Origin: Acidimicrobiia bacterium | GTDB taxonomy: Bacteria; Actinomycetota; Acidimicrobiia; Acidimicrobiales; JANYDT01 | Assembly: GCA_031423635.1 (NCBI GenBank) | Contig: JANPFX010000077.1 | Span: forward strand, 6,344-70,343 | DNA length: 64,000 nt | Direction of reading: 5' to 3' | Translations under genes and position numbers: made by a program | The notes under the pieces: generated by a model | The model's input: the letters and a program-made list of their open reading frames with translations, nothing else | The model's database searches: none | What the model was told of the DNA's origin: nothing | Shown here: in pieces, positions 53,876 through 62,344 of the stretch | Layout of the letters: the number at the start of each line of letters is the position of its first letter | Numbering within the stretch: position 1 is the stretch's first letter

Positions 53876-54319
53876 TCAGTGCGCCGGTCCGTTGTCCTGG
53901 ACCAGCTCGACGAGGGTGCCGAAGGTCGTCTTCGGGTGGATGAAGGCGACGGTCGTCCCGCGTGAGCCCGGGCGTGGCGCGTCGTCGATGGCTCGGCCTC
54001 CGGCCGCTTTGACGGCGGCGAGGGCGACCGCGCAGTCGGCGACTCGGTAGCCGATGTGGTGCAGACCTTCCCCCTTCTTCTCAAGGTACTTCGCCACCGG
54101 TGAATCAGGACGTGTCGGCGTGAGCAATTGGATGTAGCTCTCGGCCACCTTCAGGAGCGCCTCTTCGACTCCGTCGCTCTCGACCACCTCGCGGTGGTCG
54201 ACCGTCGCGCCGTAGACCTCGGCGTAGTAGGCGATTGCGCCTTCGAGGTCGTGGACGGCGATAGCGACGTGGTCGATCTCGGTCAGCAGGCCGGCGGACG
54301 AGGGCGGGGCAGAGCTCAT
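53876..54319 (-). CDS. methylmalonyl-CoA / ethylmalonyl-CoA epimerase (VOC family)
   Basis: IDHVAIAVHDLEGAIAYY, GEGLHHIGYRV and FIHPKTTFGTLVELV. Length is 147 aa. Confidence 0.8.
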   Translation of the reverse strand: MSSAPPSSAGLLTEIDHVAIAVHDLEGAIAYYAEVYGATVDHREVVESDGVEEALLKVAESYIQLLTPTRPDSPVAKYLEKKGEGLHHIGYRVADCAVALAAVKAAGGRAIDDAPRPGSRGTTVAFIHPKTTFGTLVELVQDNGPAH

Positions 54320-54373
54320 GGCTCCAGTCTTCTTTCGATCGCGCGGGTGCGGCAAACCATGCCCGGAAGTGCG

Positions 54374-54520
54374 GCAGAACACCTCCGAGCGCCGTTGGGA
54401 GGTGATTAGCCCCCATATATGGGGGCAACCTCTCTCCCAGTGCTACGGCCACTCGTGTTGCGAGCAGTCGAGCGAAGCGAGCGGCGCAGCGCCAGGGAGG
54501 GGAGGGGCAACCTCTCTCCC
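54374..54520 (+). repeat. modular intergenic repeat, copy 4 (hairpin - palindrome - A box - 65-nt segment - A box)
   Basis: Hairpin 54374-54410 with a decayed right arm. GCCCCCATATATGGGGGC at 54409-54426. GGGGCAACCTCTCTCCC at 54422-54438 and 54504-54520. Same 48-nt core as copy 1. Confidence 0.9.
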
Positions 54521-54532
54521 AAAGACCCGCAG

Positions 54533-55894
54533 TCAGGTGGCGTGGCGGAAGCGGTTGAGGGCGGGTTCGCCGATCTTGGCGCGGAACTCCGGGTCGTCGA
54601 TGCCCATGCCCTCCCGAGGGGCCAGGCACAGCACGCCGATCTTTCCCTCGTGCTGGTTGTGGTGGACGGCGTAAGCCGCCTCGCCGGTCGTGTCCATCGT
54701 GTGGACTGCTGACACCATCGGGTGGATCTTTCCCTGGCAGATCAGCTTGTTGGCGGCGTAGGACTCGGCGTAGTTGGCGAAGTGCGAGGACCTGATCGAC
54801 TTGAGCTTCATCCACAGGTGCCGGTTGTCGTACTCGATCATGTAGCCCGATGTCGCCGCGCACGTGATGATCGTCCCGCCCTTCTTGGCCATGTACACCG
54901 ACGCCCCCATGGTCGATCGGCCCGGGTGTTCGAACACGATGTCGGGGTCCTCGCCGACGAGCGCTCGCACGTCGGCGCCGAGGCGACGCCACTCCTTTTC
55001 GTCCTGAGTGTGGGGGTCCGACCAGAACCGGTAGTTGGCCGCCTTGCGGTCGATGACTGCTTCGCAGCCCATGGCGCGGAGGATCGCCGCCTTCTCCGGG
55101 GACGACACCACCCCGACGGGGACGCCGCCGCCGTTGAGCACGTACTGGATGGCGTAACCGCCGATGCCGCCGGTGGCGCCCCACACGAAGACGACGTCTC
55201 CCTGCTTCATCTGCGCGCCGTTGCGGCTCACCAGCATCCGGTAGCTGGTGGAGTTGCACAGAGCGTTCGACGCCGCCTCCTCCCAGCTGAGGTGACGGGG
55301 CTTGGGCATCAACTGGTTCGCTTTCACCACGGCGATCTCGGCGAGTCCGCCAAAATTGGTTTCGAAGCCCCAGATGCGCTGATTCGATCCGAGCATCGAG
55401 TCGTCGTGCGAGGACGGGTCCTGGTCGTCGACGTGGTTGCAGTGGATCGTGACCCGGTCGCCGACCTTCCAATTGCGAACGGCCGAGCCGACCCGCAGAA
55501 CGACACCTGCGCCGTCCGAACCGACCACGTGATAGGGCAGGGCATGTCGCTTTCCCCATTCGCCCTCTCGGCCGAGGCGGTCGAGGAAGCCGAACGTCGG
55601 CATCGGTTCGAAGATCGACGTCCACACGGTATTGAAGTTGATCGAACTGGCCATCATCGCCACATACGCTTCGTCCGGCGCAAGGTCGGGTAACGCAACG
55701 TCCTGCACGTGGAGGCTTTTGCGGGGATCTTTGTCCTCCGAGCGGAGCCCCTCGAACATCGCCGCGTCCTCCCGCCGCACGACGACGGCCCGGTAGCTCT
55801 CGGGAAGCGTGAGTGCTGCGAAATCCCCGGCGGGCGCGCCGGCCTCGACGAGGTCGACGATCGATTGTCCGAACGGCGTCTGGTTGCTTTGCAT
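54533..55894 (-). CDS. ccr: crotonyl-CoA carboxylase/reductase
   Basis: 453-aa MDR-family protein with CCR-typical segments WGFETNFGGLAE, VFVWGATGGIGGYAIQ and HEGKIGVLCLAP. Confidence 0.85.
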   Translation of the reverse strand: MQSNQTPFGQSIVDLVEAGAPAGDFAALTLPESYRAVVVRREDAAMFEGLRSEDKDPRKSLHVQDVALPDLAPDEAYVAMMASSINFNTVWTSIFEPMPTFGFLDRLGREGEWGKRHALPYHVVGSDGAGVVLRVGSAVRNWKVGDRVTIHCNHVDDQDPSSHDDSMLGSNQRIWGFETNFGGLAEIAVVKANQLMPKPRHLSWEEAASNALCNSTSYRMLVSRNGAQMKQGDVVFVWGATGGIGGYAIQYVLNGGGVPVGVVSSPEKAAILRAMGCEAVIDRKAANYRFWSDPHTQDEKEWRRLGADVRALVGEDPDIVFEHPGRSTMGASVYMAKKGGTIITCAATSGYMIEYDNRHLWMKLKSIRSSHFANYAESYAANKLICQGKIHPMVSAVHTMDTTGEAAYAVHHNQHEGKIGVLCLAPREGMGIDDPEFRAKIGEPALNRFRHAT

Positions 55895-56096
55895 AGATGC
55901 ACGGTAGGTCGTGCATATTCATGATTTCCATTCAGCCCCGCCCGGCGTCGCCCGGTCGGACGACAGTCGGGCCGGTCGTCGACCCGGTTGGCGAGTCGCC
56001 GATGTTCGGGCCAGACTTCGCCTGCACGCCCATGATGCCCGTGGACGCGTTCTCGCCACGGTTGCATTCCGTGGCGACCTACGAAGAGGAGCTCCC

Positions 56097-57281
56097 ATGC
56101 CTGGATCCGTCATCGTCGCCGGTGCCCGCACCCCCATCGGCAAACTGGCCGGCGCGTTCGCCGGACTCTCCGCCACCGATCTCGGTGGCCACGCCATCGC
56201 CGCCGCCCTCGCTCGGGCGGGCATCACCGGCGATCAGGTCGACCACGTGATCATGGGCCAGGTGCTCCTTGCCGGCGCCGGACAGATACCGGCGCGGCAG
56301 GCGGCGGTCAAGGGTGGGATCCCGATGAGCGTCCCGTCGACGGTGATCAACAAGGTGTGCCTGTCGGGCCTCAACGCCATCATCGAGGCCGACCGGATGA
56401 TCGCCGTCGGCGACGCCGACATCGTGGTGGCCGGCGGCATGGAGTCGATGACCAACGCGCCGTACCTCTTGCCCGACGCTCGCGCCGGGATGCGCATCGG
56501 TGACAAGTCGATCATCGACTCGATGATGTTCGACGGGCTGACGTGCGCGTTCGACAACGTGGCGATGGGACTCGGGACGGAGCGCTACGGCAAAGCCGAG
56601 GGGATGCAGCGCGAAGCCCAGGATGTGTTCGCCGCGCAGTCCCACGAACGAGCTGCAGCTGCGATCAAGGACGGTCGCTTCGCCGACGAGATCATCGCCG
56701 TGTCGATCCCGCAGCGAAAGGGCGATCCGCTGCTCGTCGAGACCGACGAGGGGGTGCGACCGGGCACCACGGTCGAGTCGCTGGCCAGCCTGCGGGCGAG
56801 CTTCGAGGCCGGTGGCACCATCACCGCGGGAAACGCGTCGCAGATCAGCGATGGGGGCTCCGCCGTCGTGGTGATGTCACGGGCCGCCGCCGAACGCCTG
56901 GGTGTTGCGCCGCTTGGCGAGGTCGTGAGCTACGGGATGGTGGCCGGACCCAATGCTTCGCTGCTCCACCAGCCGTCGCAGGCGATTCTCGCCGCCCTTG
57001 CCCGCGTGTCGATGGGTGTTGGCGACGTCGACCTGTTCGAGATGAACGAGGCGTTCGCTTCCGTCGCGTTGGCATCGATGGCCGATCTTGGAGTTACCGA
57101 TGCCGTCGTGAACGTCAACGGCGGCGCGATTGCGCTCGGCCATCCGATCGGTGCTTCGGGCAACCGTCTGGCCCTCACACTGCTCCACGAACTGCGTCGT
57201 CGGGGCGGCGGTGTCGGCGCCGCGGCGCTGTGTGGCGGCGGTGGGCAGGGCGACGCGCTCGTCGTCCGCGCTTTCGCCTGA
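56097..57281 (+). CDS. acetyl-CoA C-acetyltransferase (thiolase II)
   Basis: INKVCLSGLNAI (active-site Cys), NVNGGAIALGHPIGASG and CGGGGQG. ATG follows GAGGAG. Confidence 0.9.
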   Translation: MPGSVIVAGARTPIGKLAGAFAGLSATDLGGHAIAAALARAGITGDQVDHVIMGQVLLAGAGQIPARQAAVKGGIPMSVPSTVINKVCLSGLNAIIEADRMIAVGDADIVVAGGMESMTNAPYLLPDARAGMRIGDKSIIDSMMFDGLTCAFDNVAMGLGTERYGKAEGMQREAQDVFAAQSHERAAAAIKDGRFADEIIAVSIPQRKGDPLLVETDEGVRPGTTVESLASLRASFEAGGTITAGNASQISDGGSAVVVMSRAAAERLGVAPLGEVVSYGMVAGPNASLLHQPSQAILAALARVSMGVGDVDLFEMNEAFASVALASMADLGVTDAVVNVNGGAIALGHPIGASGNRLALTLLHELRRRGGGVGAAALCGGGGQGDALVVRAFA

Positions 57282-57387
57282 CGGCGCTCGGCGTGGCGGA
57301 TTGCGTCGGTCGGGTGAAGCTGGCCGAAACACAACCGTAACGTCAGGTCAACACCGACGAAATCGCGTGGGCCTACGGTCAACGCCC

Positions 57388-57633
57388 ATGCCTGTCGACG
57401 ACGCTCTCGACGTTCCTGCCGACTTCGGTGATCGCGAAGTCGCGCTCCTCGACACGCTGCGCTCGTGCGGCTCACGCGTCGTCACCCGGCGGGAGTTGGC
57501 CAGGGCGGCCGGGCTGCGCGAGCACCCCCGCCGTGTCGACGTGCATCTCGTGAACGTCCGGCGTTCGCTGACGACGGAGGAGCTCGTCAACGTACGCGGC
57601 CGCGGCTGGATGCTCGTGCCGGTCGGTACCTGA
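57388..57633 (+). CDS. stand-alone winged-helix (OmpR/PhoB C-terminal-like) DNA-binding protein
   Basis: 81 aa: REVALLDTLRSCGSRVVTRRELARAAG...RVDVHLVNVRRSL...VNVRGRGWMLV. It ends 16 nt before the next gene. Confidence 0.5.
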   Translation: MPVDDALDVPADFGDREVALLDTLRSCGSRVVTRRELARAAGLREHPRRVDVHLVNVRRSLTTEELVNVRGRGWMLVPVGT

Positions 57634-57649: not shown

Positions 57650-60433
57650 ATGAGCCGGATCTTTCTCGACATCCTCGTCGTCCTCGTCGCCGCGAAGCTC
57701 GCCGCCGAGGTCGCCGAGCGCATCGGGATTCCTGCTGTGGTCGGCGAGATCCTGGCCGGGATCGTCATCGGACCGTCGGTCCTGGGGTTCATCGCCACTG
57801 GGGAGGGTTCGTCGGCCGAGGTGCTCCTCACGCTTGGCGAGATCGGCGTGATCCTGCTGTTGCTCGAAGTCGGGATGCAGATGGACCTGCGCGAACTCGG
57901 CGCTGTTGGACGTGCCGCGCTCACCGTCGCCGTCATCGGTGTAGTTGTTCCCATGGCCGGTGGTGTCGGGGTCGGTCATCTCCTCGGGCTCACGTCGAAC
58001 GAAGCGCTGTTCGTCGGATCAGCCCTGGCGGCGACATCGGTGGGCATCACCGCTCGGGTGTTCGGTGATCTCCGTGCGCTGGCCACGATCGAGGCCCGGA
58101 CGGTGCTGGGGGCGGCCGTAGCCGACGACGTGATCGGCTTGATCATCTTGACGGTCGTTGTGCGCATCACCTCTGGTGAGGGTTCGTTCTCGTTCGGCAG
58201 TCTGATCGGCATCGTCGTCGTGGCGCTCGGGTTCCTGTTCTTGGCGACCCTCATCGGCACGCTGACCGTGCCTCGGCTGTTCGCCCAGATCGAACGACTT
58301 TCGCGCTCCAGCGGAACCCTGGTCGCTCTGGCCCTCGCGTTCACTCTGGGCATCGCCGAGTTGGCGACGCTCGCAAAGCTGGCCCCCATCGTCGGTGCCT
58401 TCGTGGCCGGTCTCGTTCTCGGACGCAGTTCGGTGTCGACGCGCGTGCAGAAGGAACTCACGTCCGTCGGTCATCTGTTCATCCCCGTGTTCTTCCTCCA
58501 GATCGGCATCAACACCGATGTCGAGCAGTTCGTCAAGCCGTCGGTGATCGGACTTGCGGCGGCAATGATCGCCGTGGCGGTGGTCGGCAAGGTTGTCGCC
58601 GGTATCGGGGCGACCGGTACGCCCGCCGACCGACTCCTCATCGGCATGGGCATGATCCCGCGGGGTGAAGTCGGCCTGATCTTCGCCAGCATCGGGCTCC
58701 GCGAAGGCGTTCTCACGGGCGACGTCTACGCCGCCGTTCTGGCGATGGTGCTCGTGACCACGCTGATCACCCCTCCGCTGTTGAGCGCTCGGGTTCGCAG
58801 AACGCAGCGGGTGTTGGCGCTTTCACCGGACACGCCCACGCCCCGACCCGAGGGTGGCTGGCTGAAGGTCGAGACGCCGGTCCGAGGTCGGGCGACGGTC
58901 ACTCTTGCCGCGCAACCACCGCGCAGCCAAGCGCTCGTGATCGCCCTCGATGCGTCGCTCATGGTGGACGACGCCGATGCCTCCGTGGCATTGACGACCT
59001 ACCTTGTCGAGGCAACAGGTGGCGCCGAGGCGACCCGGTGGGACGCTGATTCGACGGCGGCGCTGATGTCGGTCATTCGGGGCGGTTCGGTTCGGGCGTG
59101 GCGCTTCCTCGAGTCGACCGCTGTCCTTGACCGGGCGTTGCCGGAACTGGGGGCGGCGATGACCCGGCGTCGGCGGGACCCGTCCCTGCTCGATCCCTCG
59201 GGTGTTCACCACGGGGTGCTCCTCGAACGGTGTCGTCGCCTGGTTGCCGGAACGGCCCACGACTTCGTTGACGACGAACGGGCGACAACCGAGGCACGTC
59301 ACTTGTTGTATCCGGATCGACTTCTCCTCGGCGCGTACCTCGTCGACATGTTCGGCCAGCATTCGACGAACGCGGCGGAGGCCCGAGCGGTGCTCGATCG
59401 GCTCACCATCGACGAGGCCGACCGTACGGCGGTTGCCGCGCTCGTGGCCGATCGTGAGCTCATGCGCGCCGCCGCGCTTCGTGCCGATGGTCTCCACGAA
59501 GACTCTGTGCTCCGCATTGCGGCTCACCTCGGGTCGCCCGAGCAGGCTCGTGCGCTCTACGTGCTGAGCGTTGCCATCGACGAGTTGGAGACGTGGGAAT
59601 CGAGCCTGCTGACCGAACTCCATCGTCTCGTGCTCGCATCACTCGACGGACCGACCTTCTCCGGTGCCGACGCGCTCACATTGCTCGATCGGACCCGCGA
59701 CCGGGCACTTGCGTTGGTCGGGGATTCGTCGCTTCTGCGTGATCGCGTGGCGGCGGCGCCTCTCGCCTACCTTCTCTCCGAGGAACCGGCGGCCGTGGCC
59801 CGTCACGTCCGACTGCTCGAACCGTTCCCGCCACGTGCGTCGTTTCGAGTCGCGGTCACCGCCGAGTCCGGGTCGGTATGGCGGGTGGAGATCGGTGCTC
59901 GCGACCAACTCGGCCTTCTCGCCCTCGTGACCGGGGTGCTCGAACGCGCTCAACTCGACGTCGTCGACGCTGTTCTGGCGACGTGGGGTGATGGTGGAGC
60001 GCTCCAGGCGTTCCGGGTTCGCACGGGGGTCATCGGCGTTGCTCCGGACCCTGAAGCGCTTCTTGTCGCCCTCGCCCATGCTCAGCATCAGCCGCTGGTT
60101 GCCGCCTCGGTGAGCGACGCGGTCGTGTCATTCGACGATCTCGGCTCACCGTGGCACTCGATCGCCGAGGTTCGTGCCACGGACCGCCGCGGGCTCCTCC
60201 ACGCGTTGGCCGTGGCGTTCGCGGCGGCGGGAGCCGACGTTCACTCGGCCCGGATCACCACGAACGATTCGATGGCGCTCGACCGCTTCGACCTCACCGA
60301 TCGCACGGGACGAAAGCTCGACGACGAGACCAAGGCGGCGATCCGCCTCGCTCTGGCAAACGGTGTCGAAGCGCGATCGATGTCGCGCCGCCTCCCCTGG
60401 CGCACGAACACCGTAGGAACCATCCGCAAATAG
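57650..60433 (+). CDS. fusion protein: Kef/CPA2-type cation:proton antiporter (N-terminal ~390 aa) + GlnD-like C-terminal half (degenerate HD region + two ACT domains)
   Basis: The N-terminus MSRIFLDILVVLVAAKLAAEVAERIGIPAVVGEILAGIVIGPSVLG is followed by about 12 hydrophobic helices. The C-terminal half has RFLESTAVLDRALPELG (GlnD-like) and ACT-like blocks VEIGARDQLGLLALVTGVL and VRATDRRGLLHALAVAFAAAGADVHSARITT. Confidence 0.7.
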   Translation: MSRIFLDILVVLVAAKLAAEVAERIGIPAVVGEILAGIVIGPSVLGFIATGEGSSAEVLLTLGEIGVILLLLEVGMQMDLRELGAVGRAALTVAVIGVVVPMAGGVGVGHLLGLTSNEALFVGSALAATSVGITARVFGDLRALATIEARTVLGAAVADDVIGLIILTVVVRITSGEGSFSFGSLIGIVVVALGFLFLATLIGTLTVPRLFAQIERLSRSSGTLVALALAFTLGIAELATLAKLAPIVGAFVAGLVLGRSSVSTRVQKELTSVGHLFIPVFFLQIGINTDVEQFVKPSVIGLAAAMIAVAVVGKVVAGIGATGTPADRLLIGMGMIPRGEVGLIFASIGLREGVLTGDVYAAVLAMVLVTTLITPPLLSARVRRTQRVLALSPDTPTPRPEGGWLKVETPVRGRATVTLAAQPPRSQALVIALDASLMVDDADASVALTTYLVEATGGAEATRWDADSTAALMSVIRGGSVRAWRFLESTAVLDRALPELGAAMTRRRRDPSLLDPSGVHHGVLLERCRRLVAGTAHDFVDDERATTEARHLLYPDRLLLGAYLVDMFGQHSTNAAEARAVLDRLTIDEADRTAVAALVADRELMRAAALRADGLHEDSVLRIAAHLGSPEQARALYVLSVAIDELETWESSLLTELHRLVLASLDGPTFSGADALTLLDRTRDRALALVGDSSLLRDRVAAAPLAYLLSEEPAAVARHVRLLEPFPPRASFRVAVTAESGSVWRVEIGARDQLGLLALVTGVLERAQLDVVDAVLATWGDGGALQAFRVRTGVIGVAPDPEALLVALAHAQHQPLVAASVSDAVVSFDDLGSPWHSIAEVRATDRRGLLHALAVAFAAAGADVHSARITTNDSMALDRFDLTDRTGRKLDDETKAAIRLALANGVEARSMSRRLPWRTNTVGTIRK

Positions 60434-60678
60434 CCAGTTAGCCAGCAGCGAACGGCGTCGAGCGGAATGCACTGCTCGGGTGCTCCGTCACGATCACCCC
60501 GCGACCGTTCCGGGGTCCTGTCACCGATCCTCCCCACCCACTCCGGTACTCGCCCGTTGTTCTCCTCCGTCGAACCGGGTCTCCGTTCCTCGGAGTGGGG
60601 CCCCATCGGCGCCACCCCTCCACTCCTTGTTTGCCGGTGCCTTCTTGTCCCCTTGATGGATGACTGCTCCAGATCGGT

Positions 60679-60735
60679 TGAACACCGGTGAAACAACACG
60701 TTCACATACGAACGCGGTTGCAACAAGCACGAAAC
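60679..60735 (+). promoter_or_regulatory. candidate GlnR-type operator upstream of amt
   Basis: TGAAC-n6-GAAAC-n6-TTCAC at 60679-60705 and GCAAC-n6-GAAAC at 60720-60735. The 11-bp phasing resembles the actinobacterial gTnAc-n6-GaAAc GlnR box. The site lies 128-184 nt upstream of the start. Confidence 0.35.
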
Positions 60736-60862
60736 ACTTCGGAGACGGCGGAGAAATCCCGCCCTCGTAGGTTGCGCTCCGTCATTCATCACATCGTCCC
60801 CGCCCGACCGCAGGACGATGTCACTACCGCCGGACCGCCATATCCGGAAAAGAGGAGGAACC

Positions 60863-62344
60863 GTGCGGCATCCACTGCGCAAACTCGCGGGCCTGACCGT
60901 CGGTGCGCTTACGACTTCGTTGCTCATCGCCGGTCCGGCGTTCGCCGGCAAGGCGGTGGCCGAAGGGAAGCCCGAGGCGGCGACGGCTACGTCACTCAAC
61001 CTGTTGTGGATCATCTTGGGCGCCACGCTCGTGATCTTCATGCAGGCCGGATTCGCGCTCGTCGAGACCGGTCTGTGCCGGGCCAAGCACGCCGCTCACG
61101 TCGTGTCGACGAACTTCGCCATCTTCGGCCTCGGCTTCGTCGGCTTCTTCATCATCGGCTTCCCGTTGATGTTCGGCGGCTACTCGTTTGCCGGAGTGTT
61201 CGGAATGGACAAGGCGATCGGCTCGAGTCTCATCGGTTCGGGTGACTGGGTCTTCCTGTACAAGGCACCTTTGGCGCTCTCAGGCAAGGGTTACGACGTC
61301 AGTGTCGTTGCGTTCTTCCTCTACATGGTCGCCTTCATGGACACCACGGCGACCATCCCGACCGGCTCGATGGCCGAGCGGTGGAAGTGGAAGAGCTTCG
61401 TCGTGTGGGGTCTGTTCTGCGGTTCCATCTACTACCCGGTCTTCGGTGCCTGGACGTGGGGCGGCGGCTGGCTGTCGCAGTTGGGCGACTCGCTCAAGCT
61501 CGGTCATGGCTATGTCGACTTCGCCGGATCCGGTGTGGTGCATGCCGTCGGCGGCATGGCCGCTCTTGCCGGTGCGATCGTCCTCGGTCCCCGTATCGGC
61601 AAGTTCGGTCCCGACGGCAAGCCGAGGTCGCTTCCCGGCCACCATCTTCCAATGGCCATGCTCGGCACCTTCATCCTGCTGTTCGGATGGTTCGGGTTCA
61701 ACGCGGCTTCCACGTTCTCGGCGATGGACAACCGCTTCACCATCGCTGCGGTGAACACGGCCATAGCTGCCGCCTTCGGCGCCGTTGCCGCCATGTACCT
61801 GGTGTCCTACACCGGGGCCAAGAAGCCTGATCCGAGCGCCATGATCAACGGCATGCTCGCGGGTCTTGTCGCCATCACCGCACCGTGCGCCTTCATCGCA
61901 CCGTGGGCTGCCGCCGTGATCGGCGTCACTGCTGCAGTGATCGTGACCTACGCGGGTCGGTTCATCGAGTCCCGCGGCATCGACGACCCGGTCGGGGCCA
62001 TCGCCGTCCACGGTGTGGGCGGTCTGTACGGAGTCATCTGCGTCGGCCTCTTCGCCGACGGCACCTACGGCAACGCCTGGAACGCCCTCGATCGCCAGTG
62101 GACGAAGGACAACGGCGTCACCGGTCTCTTCTACGGAGGCGAAGGCTTCAAGCAGTTGCTCGCCCAGCTCATCGGCTGCGGCGTCCTCGTCACGGTGATC
62201 TTCGGGATGGCGTTCGCCTTCTTCACGATCCAGAACAAGGTCACCAAGGGCGGCATCCGCTCGTCCGAAGCAGACGAGCTCGAGGGCCTGGACATCCCGG
62301 AGATGGGAACCCACGCCTATCCCGACTTCGCGCTGGTGAAGTAA
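60863..62344 (+). CDS. amt: ammonium transporter (Amt family)
   Basis: GTG 60863 follows GAGGAGGA. Signal peptide, then LVIFMQAGFALVETG, DFAGSGVVH and AIAVHGVGGLYG signatures. Confidence 0.9.
   Translation: MRHPLRKLAGLTVGALTTSLLIAGPAFAGKAVAEGKPEAATATSLNLLWIILGATLVIFMQAGFALVETGLCRAKHAAHVVSTNFAIFGLGFVGFFIIGFPLMFGGYSFAGVFGMDKAIGSSLIGSGDWVFLYKAPLALSGKGYDVSVVAFFLYMVAFMDTTATIPTGSMAERWKWKSFVVWGLFCGSIYYPVFGAWTWGGGWLSQLGDSLKLGHGYVDFAGSGVVHAVGGMAALAGAIVLGPRIGKFGPDGKPRSLPGHHLPMAMLGTFILLFGWFGFNAASTFSAMDNRFTIAAVNTAIAAAFGAVAAMYLVSYTGAKKPDPSAMINGMLAGLVAITAPCAFIAPWAAAVIGVTAAVIVTYAGRFIESRGIDDPVGAIAVHGVGGLYGVICVGLFADGTYGNAWNALDRQWTKDNGVTGLFYGGEGFKQLLAQLIGCGVLVTVIFGMAFAFFTIQNKVTKGGIRSSEADELEGLDIPEMGTHAYPDFALVK

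Follow-up and report, generated by a model that had tools for sequence, protein, structure and literature searches.

A conserved fusion of a NapA-like antiporter domain and a GlnD-like sensor half next to amt in Acidimicrobiia

Introduction

Regulated CPA antiporters are known that carry KTN, CNBD or autoinhibitory tails. T. thermophilus NapA (structures 4bwz and 5bz2), a CPA2 member of the NapA-I clade, stops after its last helix at about 386 residues and has no regulatory domain. E. coli KefC (8bxg), a glutathione-gated K+/H+ exchanger, joins a CPA2 core with the K+-type LSST/QD residues to a C-terminal cytoplasmic ligand-binding gate, a KTN/RCK nucleotide-binding domain controlled by glutathione adducts. 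The eukaryotic Na+/H+ exchangers SOS1 and SLC9C1 likewise combine an NhaA-fold membrane domain with a long cytoplasmic C-terminal regulatory region, which in these proteins is built from a CNBD or autoinhibitory domain, with a VSD in addition in SLC9C1. According to a published rule for CPA motifs, transport is electrogenic where positions 6 and 7 are aspartates and position 8 is a lysine (PMC6181914), while the Na+ type is marked by a non-polar position 4, in the unwound TM4.

GlnD (TIGR01693) is the [protein-PII] uridylyl/adenylyltransferase and also the corresponding removing enzyme. Its ACT domains are required for the glutamine response of the enzyme, as stated in a passage of PMC11190351 that cites Zhang et al. 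(2010). The use of GlnD-like ACT domains as a portable glutamine switch on unrelated effectors has precedents (PMC11190351, PMC3173338) in the Chlamydomonas alpha-amylase AMA2, in which a GlnD-like ACT module fused to an amylase brings about activation by glutamine (PMC11190351), and in ACR11 and other ACR proteins of plants. The proteins in question are soluble enzymes or consist of ACT domains only, whereas the protein described here has a membrane transporter as its effector and has kept a dead HD bundle. Our literature search returned no paper on an antiporter-GlnD fusion, no published CPA antiporter with a nitrogen-sensor tail and no description of a link between nitrogen status and Na+/H+ exchange.

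Results

The fusion protein is encoded by a single uninterrupted ORF of 927 amino acids that begins with ATG and occupies positions 57650..60433 of the forward strand in the 64-kb window, by which we mean the whole stretch of DNA that was analyzed. A Pfam scan placed Na_H_Exchanger (PF00999) on residues 15-377 (E = 4e-63, 213.9 bits against a cut-off of 26.2). In the NCBIfam scan the CPA2 model TIGR00932 covered residues 12-290, and the GlnD model TIGR01693 matched residues 465-906 (E = 7e-30) through its C-terminal part only, profile positions 375-849 of 850, with 103.9 bits against an equivalog cut-off of 519.4. The gene is genuine and widely conserved across Acidimicrobiia. More than 120 full-length homologues share 50-97% identity with it. 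At least 80 genomes at species level, almost all from Acidimicrobiia, have a full-length orthologue, and in other samples independent contigs run across the junction of the two domains with no indels. Precomputed Pfam assignments for over 200 family members contain PF00999 and ACT-type families only. The architecture, of which the sequence-only reading knew no description, is absent from the papers we found and yet common, and its proteins stand in databases under the generic name 'cation:proton antiporter' only.

The membrane half comprises residues 1-390 with 13 predicted helices (57650..58819, forward strand). Its nine carrier residues, A128-T129-S130-V131, D159-D160, K314, R338 and E340, are all invariant in the 41 aligned family members. 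Comparison with NapA (4bwz) by phmmer gave E = 2e-62 at 37-38% identity, with D159 and D160 aligned to NapA D156 and D157 and K314 to NapA K305. Foldseek superposed the AF2 model on 5bz2 with a TM-score of 0.89, an rmsd of 2.7 Å and 37% identity, and identified the NhaA fold. The domain therefore shares with NapA its length, its fold and the ATSV…DD…K…R-G-E signature, from which an electrogenic Na+(Li+)/H+ mechanism of the elevator type and a cytoplasmic C-terminus would be expected; NapA ends where the fusion adds about 530 cytoplasmic residues. Foldseek also matched the membrane domains of KefC, SOS1 and SLC9C1. The regulatory parts of the two eukaryotic exchangers are unrelated to the fusion tail.

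The initial description of this domain as Kef/CPA2-like was correct as to CPA2 and has to be revised as to Kef, since the signature and the closest match are those of NapA. At the positions where the fusion has ATSV and DD, the KefC alignment reads LSST and QD. The fusion gave no Pfam match to a KTN/RCK (TrkA_N) domain at E<=1, and the KefB and KefC equivalog models scored 57-59 bits against cut-offs of 752-804, on the membrane part only. We therefore rejected a Kef-type transporter; the overall plan of core and C-terminal gate is that of KefC, but the fusion differs from it in its Na+-type motif and its GlnD-derived tail. With D159, D160 and K314 the fusion carries the electrogenic signature, and its position 4 is non-polar, the ATSV stretch being identical to that of NapA. 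Because this signature is NapA-like and not the QD/LSST of KefC, Na+/H+ exchange is likelier than K+/H+ exchange, and the membrane half is probably an electrogenic Na+(Li+)/H+ antiporter, the ion being predicted from the motif rule.

Directly after the last transmembrane helix lies a conserved beta-hairpin linker (residues 396-423; 58835..58918, forward strand) with nearly invariant P400, G403, W404, L419 and P423 and AF2 strands at 405-408 and 416-419. We regard this hairpin as a candidate element for coupling the transporter to the sensor. The full-length AF2 model had a pTM of only 0.59 and so leaves the transporter/sensor interface undefined.

Homology to GlnD sets in shortly ahead of the HD domain, continues as far as the C-terminus and includes both ACT domains with their loops. 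The C-half alone retrieved real GlnDs in a phmmer search (proteins with PF08335, PF01966 and ACT; E = 1.8e-17), so that by sequence comparison the relationship is far above chance. An alignment with five true GlnDs defined the pre-HD segment and the HD-homologous helical region (residues 425-723; 58922..59818, forward strand), and the GlnD-like segments RFLESTAVLDRALPELG, SGVHHGVLLERC and LLLGAYLVDMFGQHS are present in the fusion protein. In this alignment the histidine of the GlnD 'YH' pair falls on L513 and that of the 'HD' pair on V565, while D566 is retained; none of the 41 aligned family members has histidine at either position. Judged by these residues, the HD-like region is catalytically degenerate, having lost its metal-binding histidines. 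It was modeled by AF2 with a pLDDT of about 90. Searches of the PDB with the tail gave no HD-fold match that stands out; the best match of the helical region was to a helical body in the 'tRNA processing enzyme' 3wfp (E = 9e-4, TM about 0.35).

The first ACT domain (residues 733-811; 59846..60082, forward strand) has the beta-alpha-beta-beta-alpha order in the AF2 model and aligns with ACT1 of GlnD. Its loop reads D752-x-x-G755-L756-L757…F788, with D752 found in 41 of 41 members, F788 in 40, L756 and L757 in 38 each and G755 in 36. The second (residues 837-904; 60158..60361, forward strand) matches Pfam ACT at 839-896 with 38.3 bits against a cut-off of 27. Here the loop is D845-R-R-G848-L-L850 with D878 and F880, and D845, G848, D878 and F880 are invariant across the family and the true GlnDs. 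Taken over both domains, the D-x-x-G-L-L…F loops are kept in 36-41 of 41 members. The AF2 model of the C-half alone (pLDDT 91, pTM 0.87) contains two ACT folds, and Foldseek matched the tail to the tandem-ACT proteins SerB2, BT0572 and regulatory subunits of aspartate kinase.

These results bear out the outline drawn from the sequence at the start: a CPA2 membrane domain, detected by PF00999, TIGR00932 and Foldseek; a C-terminal half homologous to that of GlnD; an HD-like region devoid of the H...HD residues; two ACT domains; and no nucleotidyltransferase domain. The fusion gave no Pfam match to NTP_transf_2, GlnD_UR_UTase (PF08335) or HD at E<=1, and the GlnD profile match begins at position 375. 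GlnD possesses the NTase, GlnD_UR_UTase and the HD histidines and the fusion tail lacks all three; by this comparison the fusion could therefore neither modify nor demodify PII. A canonical GlnD (NTP_transf_2, GlnD_UR_UTase, HD, ACT) and PII coexist with the fusion in one locus (L075), which makes the fusion a paralogous offshoot and not the GlnD of the cell.

As first described, the fusion gene lies directly upstream of amt, the next gene, which follows after 384 nt. The gene product is a 508-residue ammonium transporter with a signal-peptide-like N-terminus (60818..62344, forward strand; Ammonium_transp E = 2e-103; TIGR00836 351 bits against a cut-off of 343). No glnK follows amt in this window, tblastn found no PII or GlnD anywhere in the 64 kb, and no glnR was identified there. 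An amt gene adjoins the fusion at 55 of the 80 species loci, where three arrangements occur, and amt is missing at 13 loci with ample flanks.

The cassette begins with a gene for a small winged-helix protein of the OmpR/PhoB type (Trans_reg_C; about 81 aa; 57388..57633, forward strand), whose stop codon precedes the fusion start by 16 nt. We propose that the two genes form one transcription unit with the fusion second. The Pfam match (E = 7e-5) is below the gathering score; orthologues from the amt-less clade reach 45 bits, above gathering.

Two arrays of GlnR-box-like repeats, each followed by a -10 element, were found on the forward strand. The array upstream of the winged-helix gene (57326..57379) reads GAAAC-n6-GTAAC-n6-TCAAC-n6-GAAAT-n10-TACGGT; since the ATG at 57388 is only 9 nt past the -10, the transcript is probably leaderless. 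The array upstream of amt (60720..60773), GCAAC-n6-GAAAC-n6-GAGAC-n6-GAAAT-n10-TAGGTT, would give amt its own predicted nitrogen-controlled promoter. Both fit the layout of the GlnR box, an a-n6-b-n6-a-n6-b arrangement (gTnAc-n6-GaAAc…) that overlaps the -35 region (PMC10704036); the boxes are predicted by pattern and by analogy with Streptomyces and Mycobacterium. We counted box patterns in 2.7 Mb of loci (81 sequences). The proximal pattern AC-n6-GAAA[CT]-n9-11-TAnnnT had 67 matches, of which 29 precede a winged-helix/fusion pair and 27 precede amt; together with the PII promoters, these promoters hold nearly all matches (59/67). The strict pattern GAAAC-N17-GAAA[CT] had 42 matches, 33 of which lie 40-220 nt upstream of amt. 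Box patterns are also present in the amt-less clade. A search of RNA runs for the sequence gave no match. We know of no study of GlnR in Acidimicrobiia.

Discussion

On balance, and with moderate confidence, we interpret the fusion as a nitrogen-regulated NapA-type Na+(Li+)/H+ antiporter with a cytoplasmic tail recruited from GlnD and with gating that responds to a ligand sensed by the ACT domains, probably glutamine. Gating by a nitrogen- or glutamine-sensing module had been suggested in the sequence-only reading, and conserved synteny with amt and the predicted GlnR-box promoters strengthen that suggestion. A nitrogen-limitation regulon would switch the cassette on, and the ACT pair of the membrane-located fusion would read a metabolite that reports nitrogen status, most likely glutamine. 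The dead HD bundle and the conserved hairpin would then relay the signal that opens or closes the antiporter, in analogy to the gating of KefC by its KTN domain. In this way H+/Na+ exchange would be tied to ammonium acquisition, and through it so would the pH of the cytoplasm or the sodium cycle. What we infer in this scheme is which ligand is bound and which ion is transported, in which direction regulation acts and what physiological purpose it serves. ACT domains have many and varied ligands and we know of no residue-level glutamine site in GlnD, so that glutamine is a guess by ancestry. There is also no obvious physiological ground for Na+/H+ antiport to follow nitrogen status, and the 13 amt-less loci with ample flanks count against the reading.

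The protein might instead be a transceptor, engaged mainly in signaling. Its GlnD-derived tail, perhaps together with the ion site, would signal the status of nitrogen or ions and control the winged-helix protein, for instance by keeping that protein bound at the membrane. The winged-helix protein would in turn work through the GAAAC boxes that belong to the cassette and to amt. Tracing the winged-helix gene with an HMM built from the loci revealed that it is the most constant partner of the fusion: at 52 of the 80 species loci it immediately precedes the fusion, at six loci with the order amt->fusion it lies upstream of amt instead, and so it heads the cassette in 58 of the 76 loci with room for it. 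Pfam scans detected no receiver domain in the protein, which would therefore need another input. It belongs to the OmpR family, as does GlnR, and direct repeats like those of the boxes are typical of OmpR-family regulators; the predicted GlnR boxes could be bound by this protein instead. Against this, the gene is missing from the cassette in the other 18 loci, its interaction with the fusion is hypothetical, and a standard GlnR suffices to explain the boxes because they match the canonical GlnR consensus. The invariance of all carrier residues indicates that transport is under selection, yet transceptors keep such residues too. We consider a transceptor unlikely.

A second alternative retains the antiporter and changes what the tail recognizes. 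Since PII is the natural substrate of GlnD, the remnant could bind PII (GlnK) in place of glutamine or in addition to it, and GlnK would regulate the antiporter as it does AmtB. About 14 of the 80 loci have a PII gene within 10 kb of the fusion, and at several (such as L040, L051, L068, L075 and L078) it immediately follows the adjoining amt. At most loci, this window included, there is no PII nearby, the catalytic sites of GlnD are gone (NTase) or dead (HD), and the ACT ligand loops are the most conserved part of the tail, all of which makes docking of PII distinctly unlikely in our view.

The tight and repeated linkage with amt would also suit a relief valve, in which the substrate is NH4+ (or K+) and high glutamine opens an NH4+/H+ exchanger that expels excess ammonium imported by Amt, preventing futile cycling or toxicity. 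AmhT, a CPA2 protein of Bacillus pseudofirmus, reportedly mediates K+/NH4+ efflux. The carrier motif of the fusion (ATSV…DD…K), however, is identical to that of the Na+/Li+-specific NapA, and its position 4 is not the small polar residue by which K+-selective clades are recognized; moreover, an ammonium exporter fits poorly with the co-expression under nitrogen limitation that the GlnR boxes imply. We hold this explanation to be very unlikely.

Databases also contain standalone C-halves, about 470-580 aa in length, some of which JGI labels '[protein-PII] uridylyltransferase', and every standalone half examined proved to be a frameshifted or truncated gene call. In two (P0123 and P0174) a frameshift puts the N-half into another frame, and the adjoining amt is fragmented too; one C-half ORF is overlapped by a CPA2 ORF (P0134), and one gene is cut by the contig end (P0214). 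That an assembly or frameshift error joined a separate antiporter gene to a truncated GlnD-like gene is rejected as practically negligible, given that the entries are themselves artefacts and that the full-length orthologues, the 80 species loci with the fusion and the junction-spanning contigs stand against it.

Under the favored reading of a nitrogen-regulated antiporter, its placement by amt under GlnR-type boxes implies that Na+/H+ exchange, and with it pH or the sodium cycle, may be coupled to nitrogen status throughout the class. More tentatively, the winged-helix protein, the tailed antiporter and Amt might constitute an unrecognized nitrogen-homeostasis module of Acidimicrobiia, a possibility to which we give limited credence. 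Glutamine sensing would in that case act on transport without a PII modification cycle, and might replace GlnK for Amt or feed the winged-helix regulator. At most fusion loci the neighboring Amt has no adjacent glnK. Acidimicrobiia are abundant and mostly uncultured members of soils, sediments and freshwater, and the cassette may be relevant to their handling of ammonium. The tail is also of possible use for the study of glutamine sensing by GlnD-type ACT pairs: our PDB searches returned no solved structure that matches the sensor half of GlnD, and the tail, a natural and catalytically silent excision of that half modeled with high pLDDT, may be tractable for this reason.

A single gene encodes an antiporter with an ACT-containing tail

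The ORF of the fusion gene runs from 57650 to 60433 on the + strand, begins with ATG and encodes 927 aa, exactly as the sequence-only reading had placed it. A Pfam scan recovered the expected arrangement, with Na_H_Exchanger (PF00999; residues 15-377, E=4e-63) at the N-terminus, ACT (residues 839-896, above the curated cut-off) at the C-terminus, and no NTP_transf_2 match. GlnD_UR_UTase had also been anticipated in the tail; this part of the expectation failed, as neither this domain nor HD nor NTP_transf_2 gave a Pfam match even at E<=1. The GlnD homology itself stood. The NCBIfam GlnD equivalog TIGR01693 aligns residues 465-906 with profile positions 375-849 of 850 (E=7e-30), at a score of 104 that is far under the equivalog cut-off of 519 bits and through the C-terminal part of the profile only.

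A full-length search returned upwards of 120 proteins, each about 900-950 aa long, that share 50-97% identity and all contain PF00999 and ACT, and scanning one genome per GTDB species revealed at least 80 full-length loci. The junction between the last transmembrane (TM) helix and the tail is covered without indels by independent contigs from other freshwater-sediment runs. Together these observations exclude an assembly or frameshift artefact. Acidimicrobiia or unclassified Actinomycetota is the label of nearly all of the 80 listed loci, one of which is a MAG contig 97% identical; an exhaustive search of representatives gave 179 clusters (50% identity) at E<=1e-30. The architecture had been thought undescribed. 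In the databases it is common and carries generic names ('cation:proton antiporter' at NCBI, 'KefB / predicted amino acid-binding ACT domain protein' at JGI), while no describing paper was found in literature searches on ACT/GlnD with antiporter or Acidimicrobiia, nor one combining CPA2/NapA with 'ACT domain'.

The databases also hold shorter 'standalone' tails, some labelled PII uridylyltransferase. We rejected these as standalone or split halves, the four short proteins examined all being frameshifted or contig-truncated calls. For P0123 and P0174 the N-terminal half lies in a different frame, and the adjacent amt is shattered too; the C-half ORF of P0134 is overlapped by a CPA2 ORF, and P0214 begins at a contig end. 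On the long contigs L081 (JBAJGS010005908.1), L082 and L083 (ERZ250395xx), probably from long-read assemblies, the fusion gene and amt are split by indel errors. Such splits account for spurious database entries of the kinds 'standalone ACT protein' and '[protein-PII] uridylyltransferase'.

The membrane half resembles NapA

The membrane half had been read as Kef-like; phmmer, AlphaFold superposition and motif alignment all point to NapA instead. In a phmmer search of PDB sequences, Thermus NapA matched over the whole domain with E=2e-62 and KefC with only 1e-14. Superposition of the AlphaFold model on NapA 5bz2 gives a TM-score of 0.89 at 37% identity. In the alignment to NapA, D159/D160 correspond to D156/D157, K314 to K305, and R338/E340 to the R-G-E of TM11. 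At the aligned positions the fusion protein carries D-D and A-T-S-V, against Q-D and L-S-S-T in KefC. A published scheme of CPA motifs takes Asp at position 6 together with Lys at position 8 as the mark of the electrogenic NhaA/NapA/GerN clades and a non-polar position 4 as that of the Na+-type CPA2s, while Kef-like K+ transporters carry LSST (PMC6181914). The nine residues A-T-S-V, D-D, K314, R338 and E340 are unchanged in 41 of 41 aligned family members, which argues that the transport machinery is under selection. Since the NapA topology has a cytoplasmic C-terminus, homology would place the tail of the fusion protein in the cytoplasm.

The tail derives from the sensor half of GlnD

Searched alone, the C-half (about residues 396-927) retrieved its own family first and then true GlnDs with PF08335, PF01966 and ACT (E=1.8e-17 to 4e-4). 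The alignment with GlnD spans the pre-HD segment, in which RFLESTAVLDRALPELG of the fusion protein is aligned to LEVLDRLDLLERFVPEW of GlnD, as well as HD, the linker, ACT1 and ACT2. The HD histidines are indeed lost: the GlnD His of Y-H-(R/K)-Y is replaced by L513 and that of L-L-H-D-I-G-K by V565, and a His occurs at these positions in 0 of 41 family members. The Asp following the second HD position is retained (Asp in 35 and Glu in 6 of the 41). No phosphohydrolase (uridylyl- or adenylyl-removing) activity is expected of the tail, because the HD histidines are absent in 41 of 41.

Both of the ACT-like blocks noted earlier contain a D-x-x-G-L-L loop and a β4 Phe. Family conservation is high in ACT1 (D752 41/41, G755 36/41, F788 40/41) and in ACT2 (D845 and G848 40/41; L850, D878 and F880 41/41), and D845, G848, D878 and F880 remain invariant when true GlnDs are added to the alignment. 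A tail-only AF2 model (pLDDT 91.4, pTM 0.87) consists of a β-hairpin straight after the last TM helix (residues 405-419), a helical bundle (425-723) and two ACT folds (733-811 and 837-904). The full-length model has a pTM of 0.59 and does not define an interface between transporter and tail. Searching the PDB with the C-half sequence gave a chance match only, and a fold search of the tail found no GlnD-like or HD template there; the best fold matches, all weak, were the helical body of a 'tRNA processing enzyme' (3wfp) and generic tandem-ACT proteins.

The fusion protein thus has the features of a CPA2/NapA-type antiporter and of an ACT-domain protein. It is not a KefC, as the KTN domain is absent and the motif is wrong, nor a GlnD, as it lacks the NTase and GlnD_UR_UTase, has a dead HD and scores below the equivalog threshold. 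It is best described as a variation on the theme of CPA antiporters with cytoplasmic regulatory tails, the tail in this case having come from GlnD.

The fusion gene is linked to amt and a winged-helix gene

The next gene downstream is amt (60818-62344; Pfam E=2e-103), as had been noted. Of the 80 listed species loci, 55 have an amt no more than 1.5 kb from the fusion gene: 33 carry it downstream and 18 upstream, in either case on the same strand, and in 4 the two genes diverge. That adjacency survives rearrangement argues for functional coupling of the two genes. In the window and the 55 amt-adjacent loci there is usually no glnK directly attached to amt; PII directly adjoins the fusion-linked amt only in L040, L051, L068, L073, L075 and L078. 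The pairing of amtB with glnK is otherwise very widespread, and its absence beside the fusion-linked amt is unusual. Some loci have a second amt-glnK(-glnD) set close by.

Directly 5' of the fusion gene is a small OmpR/PhoB-type winged-helix gene (57388-57633), whose stop codon lies 16 nt before the fusion start; we refer to the two genes as the cassette. The winged-helix gene holds this position in 52 loci and precedes amt in 6 further amt-to-fusion loci, giving 58 of the 76 loci with room for it. No receiver domain was detected in the winged-helix protein of the cassette, and, considered as a possible GlnR paralogue, it shows only a generic OmpR/PhoB likeness. By ORF and gene calls it is about 81 aa long in the window and about 165 aa or longer in the amt-less clade (orthologues include L007 9304-9981 and L083 3494-3997). 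In that clade, hydantoinase/oxoprolinase A and B genes, another nitrogen-related function, often lie immediately 3' of the fusion gene (L007 12755-16134; also L012, L014, L034, L070 and L083). L001, L002, L005 and L081, the closest relatives, keep the upstream neighbours at 53876-57281 beside their cassettes. These neighbours are a small gene (53876-54382, -), a zinc-ADH-family gene (54533-55894, -), whose L081 orthologue matches Pfam ADH_N and ADH_zinc_N, and a thiolase gene (55911-57281, +); they may form an acyl-CoA metabolism block.

GlnR-type boxes precede both amt and the cassette

Box arrays are present 5' of amt (60720-60773; GCAAC-n6-GAAAC-n6-GAGAC-n6-GAAAT-n10-TAGGTT) and 5' of the winged-helix gene (57326-57379; GAAAC-n6-GTAAC-n6-TCAAC-n6-GAAAT-n10-TACGGT). 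Both fit the actinobacterial GlnR consensus gTnAc-n6-GaAAc-n6-GtnAC-n6-GAAAc (review PMC10704036). Patterns were counted on both strands of 2.7 Mb of loci. The strict pattern GAAAC-N17-GAAA[CT] occurs 42 times, 33 of them 40-220 nt upstream of amt. The proximal pattern AC-n6-GAAA[CT]-n9-11-TAnnnT occurs 67 times in the 2.7 Mb: 29 lie 5' of winged-helix/fusion pairs (amt-less loci included), 27 upstream of amt and 3 upstream of PII. Amt-less loci with the pattern 5' of the winged-helix gene include L011, L013-L016 and L021. Because box patterns precede both, we predict that a GlnR-type nitrogen regulon includes the cassette and amt, with GlnR or the cassette's own winged-helix protein as candidate binders. 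The -10 element ends 9 nt before the ATG of the winged-helix gene, which suggests a leaderless mRNA. A search for RNA-seq runs containing the sequence, as a source of evidence on co-transcription, found none.

A nitrogen-regulated antiporter is the best-supported reading

The evidence best supports reading the protein as a NapA-type antiporter with its activity under the control of an ACT sensor that came from GlnD. The fusion gene would be expressed together with the nitrogen-limitation regulon, and the sensor would then act on the antiporter as the KTN domain does in KefC, an analogous design. GlnD ancestry makes glutamine the most likely ligand: GlnD needs its ACT domains to respond to glutamine, and an algal amylase gains activation by glutamine from a GlnD-like ACT domain (PMC11190351). 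The purpose could be to compensate pH or acid-trap ammonium while Amt imports it, or alternatively to control the sodium cycle.

One rival is a transceptor that controls its winged-helix partner, the product of the gene so often found beside it. Another is an antiporter on which PII docks. PII genes lie within 10 kb in about 14 of the 80 listed loci, and the 64-kb window contains neither PII nor GlnD (glnK/glnD). An NH4+/K+ relief valve, for which the CPA2 member AmhT of Bacillus pseudofirmus, reported to mediate K+/NH4+ efflux, would be an argument, is disfavoured, as the Na+-type carrier motif counts against it. Replacement of GlnD by the fusion protein is contradicted by L075, which has both: winged-helix gene, fusion gene, amt and PII are followed there by a canonical amt-PII-GlnD operon in convergent orientation, and the GlnD that it encodes carries all four domains.

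A repeat element in the fusion-amt spacer

The fusion-amt spacer contains a GC-rich element of roughly 125 nt (60503-60627) that is predicted to fold strongly (-54 kcal/mol for the minus strand) and bears two C-rich motifs, CCCCACCCACTCC and CCACCCCTCCACTCC. It occurs once within the window. The element is multi-copy, since its k-mer depth in four metagenome runs is 3-13-fold that of the flanks and contigs breaking at its ends lead into several different flanks. A 69-nt deletion variant (60531->60601) is present in all four runs. Its 24-mer core has no exact match in JGI metagenome contigs; a 17-mer gave 47 matches, which we regard as chance because none extends past about 20 nt. Rfam returned nothing meaningful on the cassette or the spacer. 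The 96-97% identical relatives L001 (11231-11352) and L002 (12917-13035) carry the element in the same spacer in opposite orientation. Candidate identities are a MITE/REP-like repeat and an invertible segment. The spacers of these two relatives are longer, at about 500-530 nt (L001 11138-11640; L002 12782-13310), with 4-5 tandemly spaced copies of (G)GACCCCGGAACGG, of which the window keeps one, reversed. The spacer is a rearrangement hot spot. Its conserved part is only the last 130 nt or so, with the GlnR boxes and the 5'UTR.
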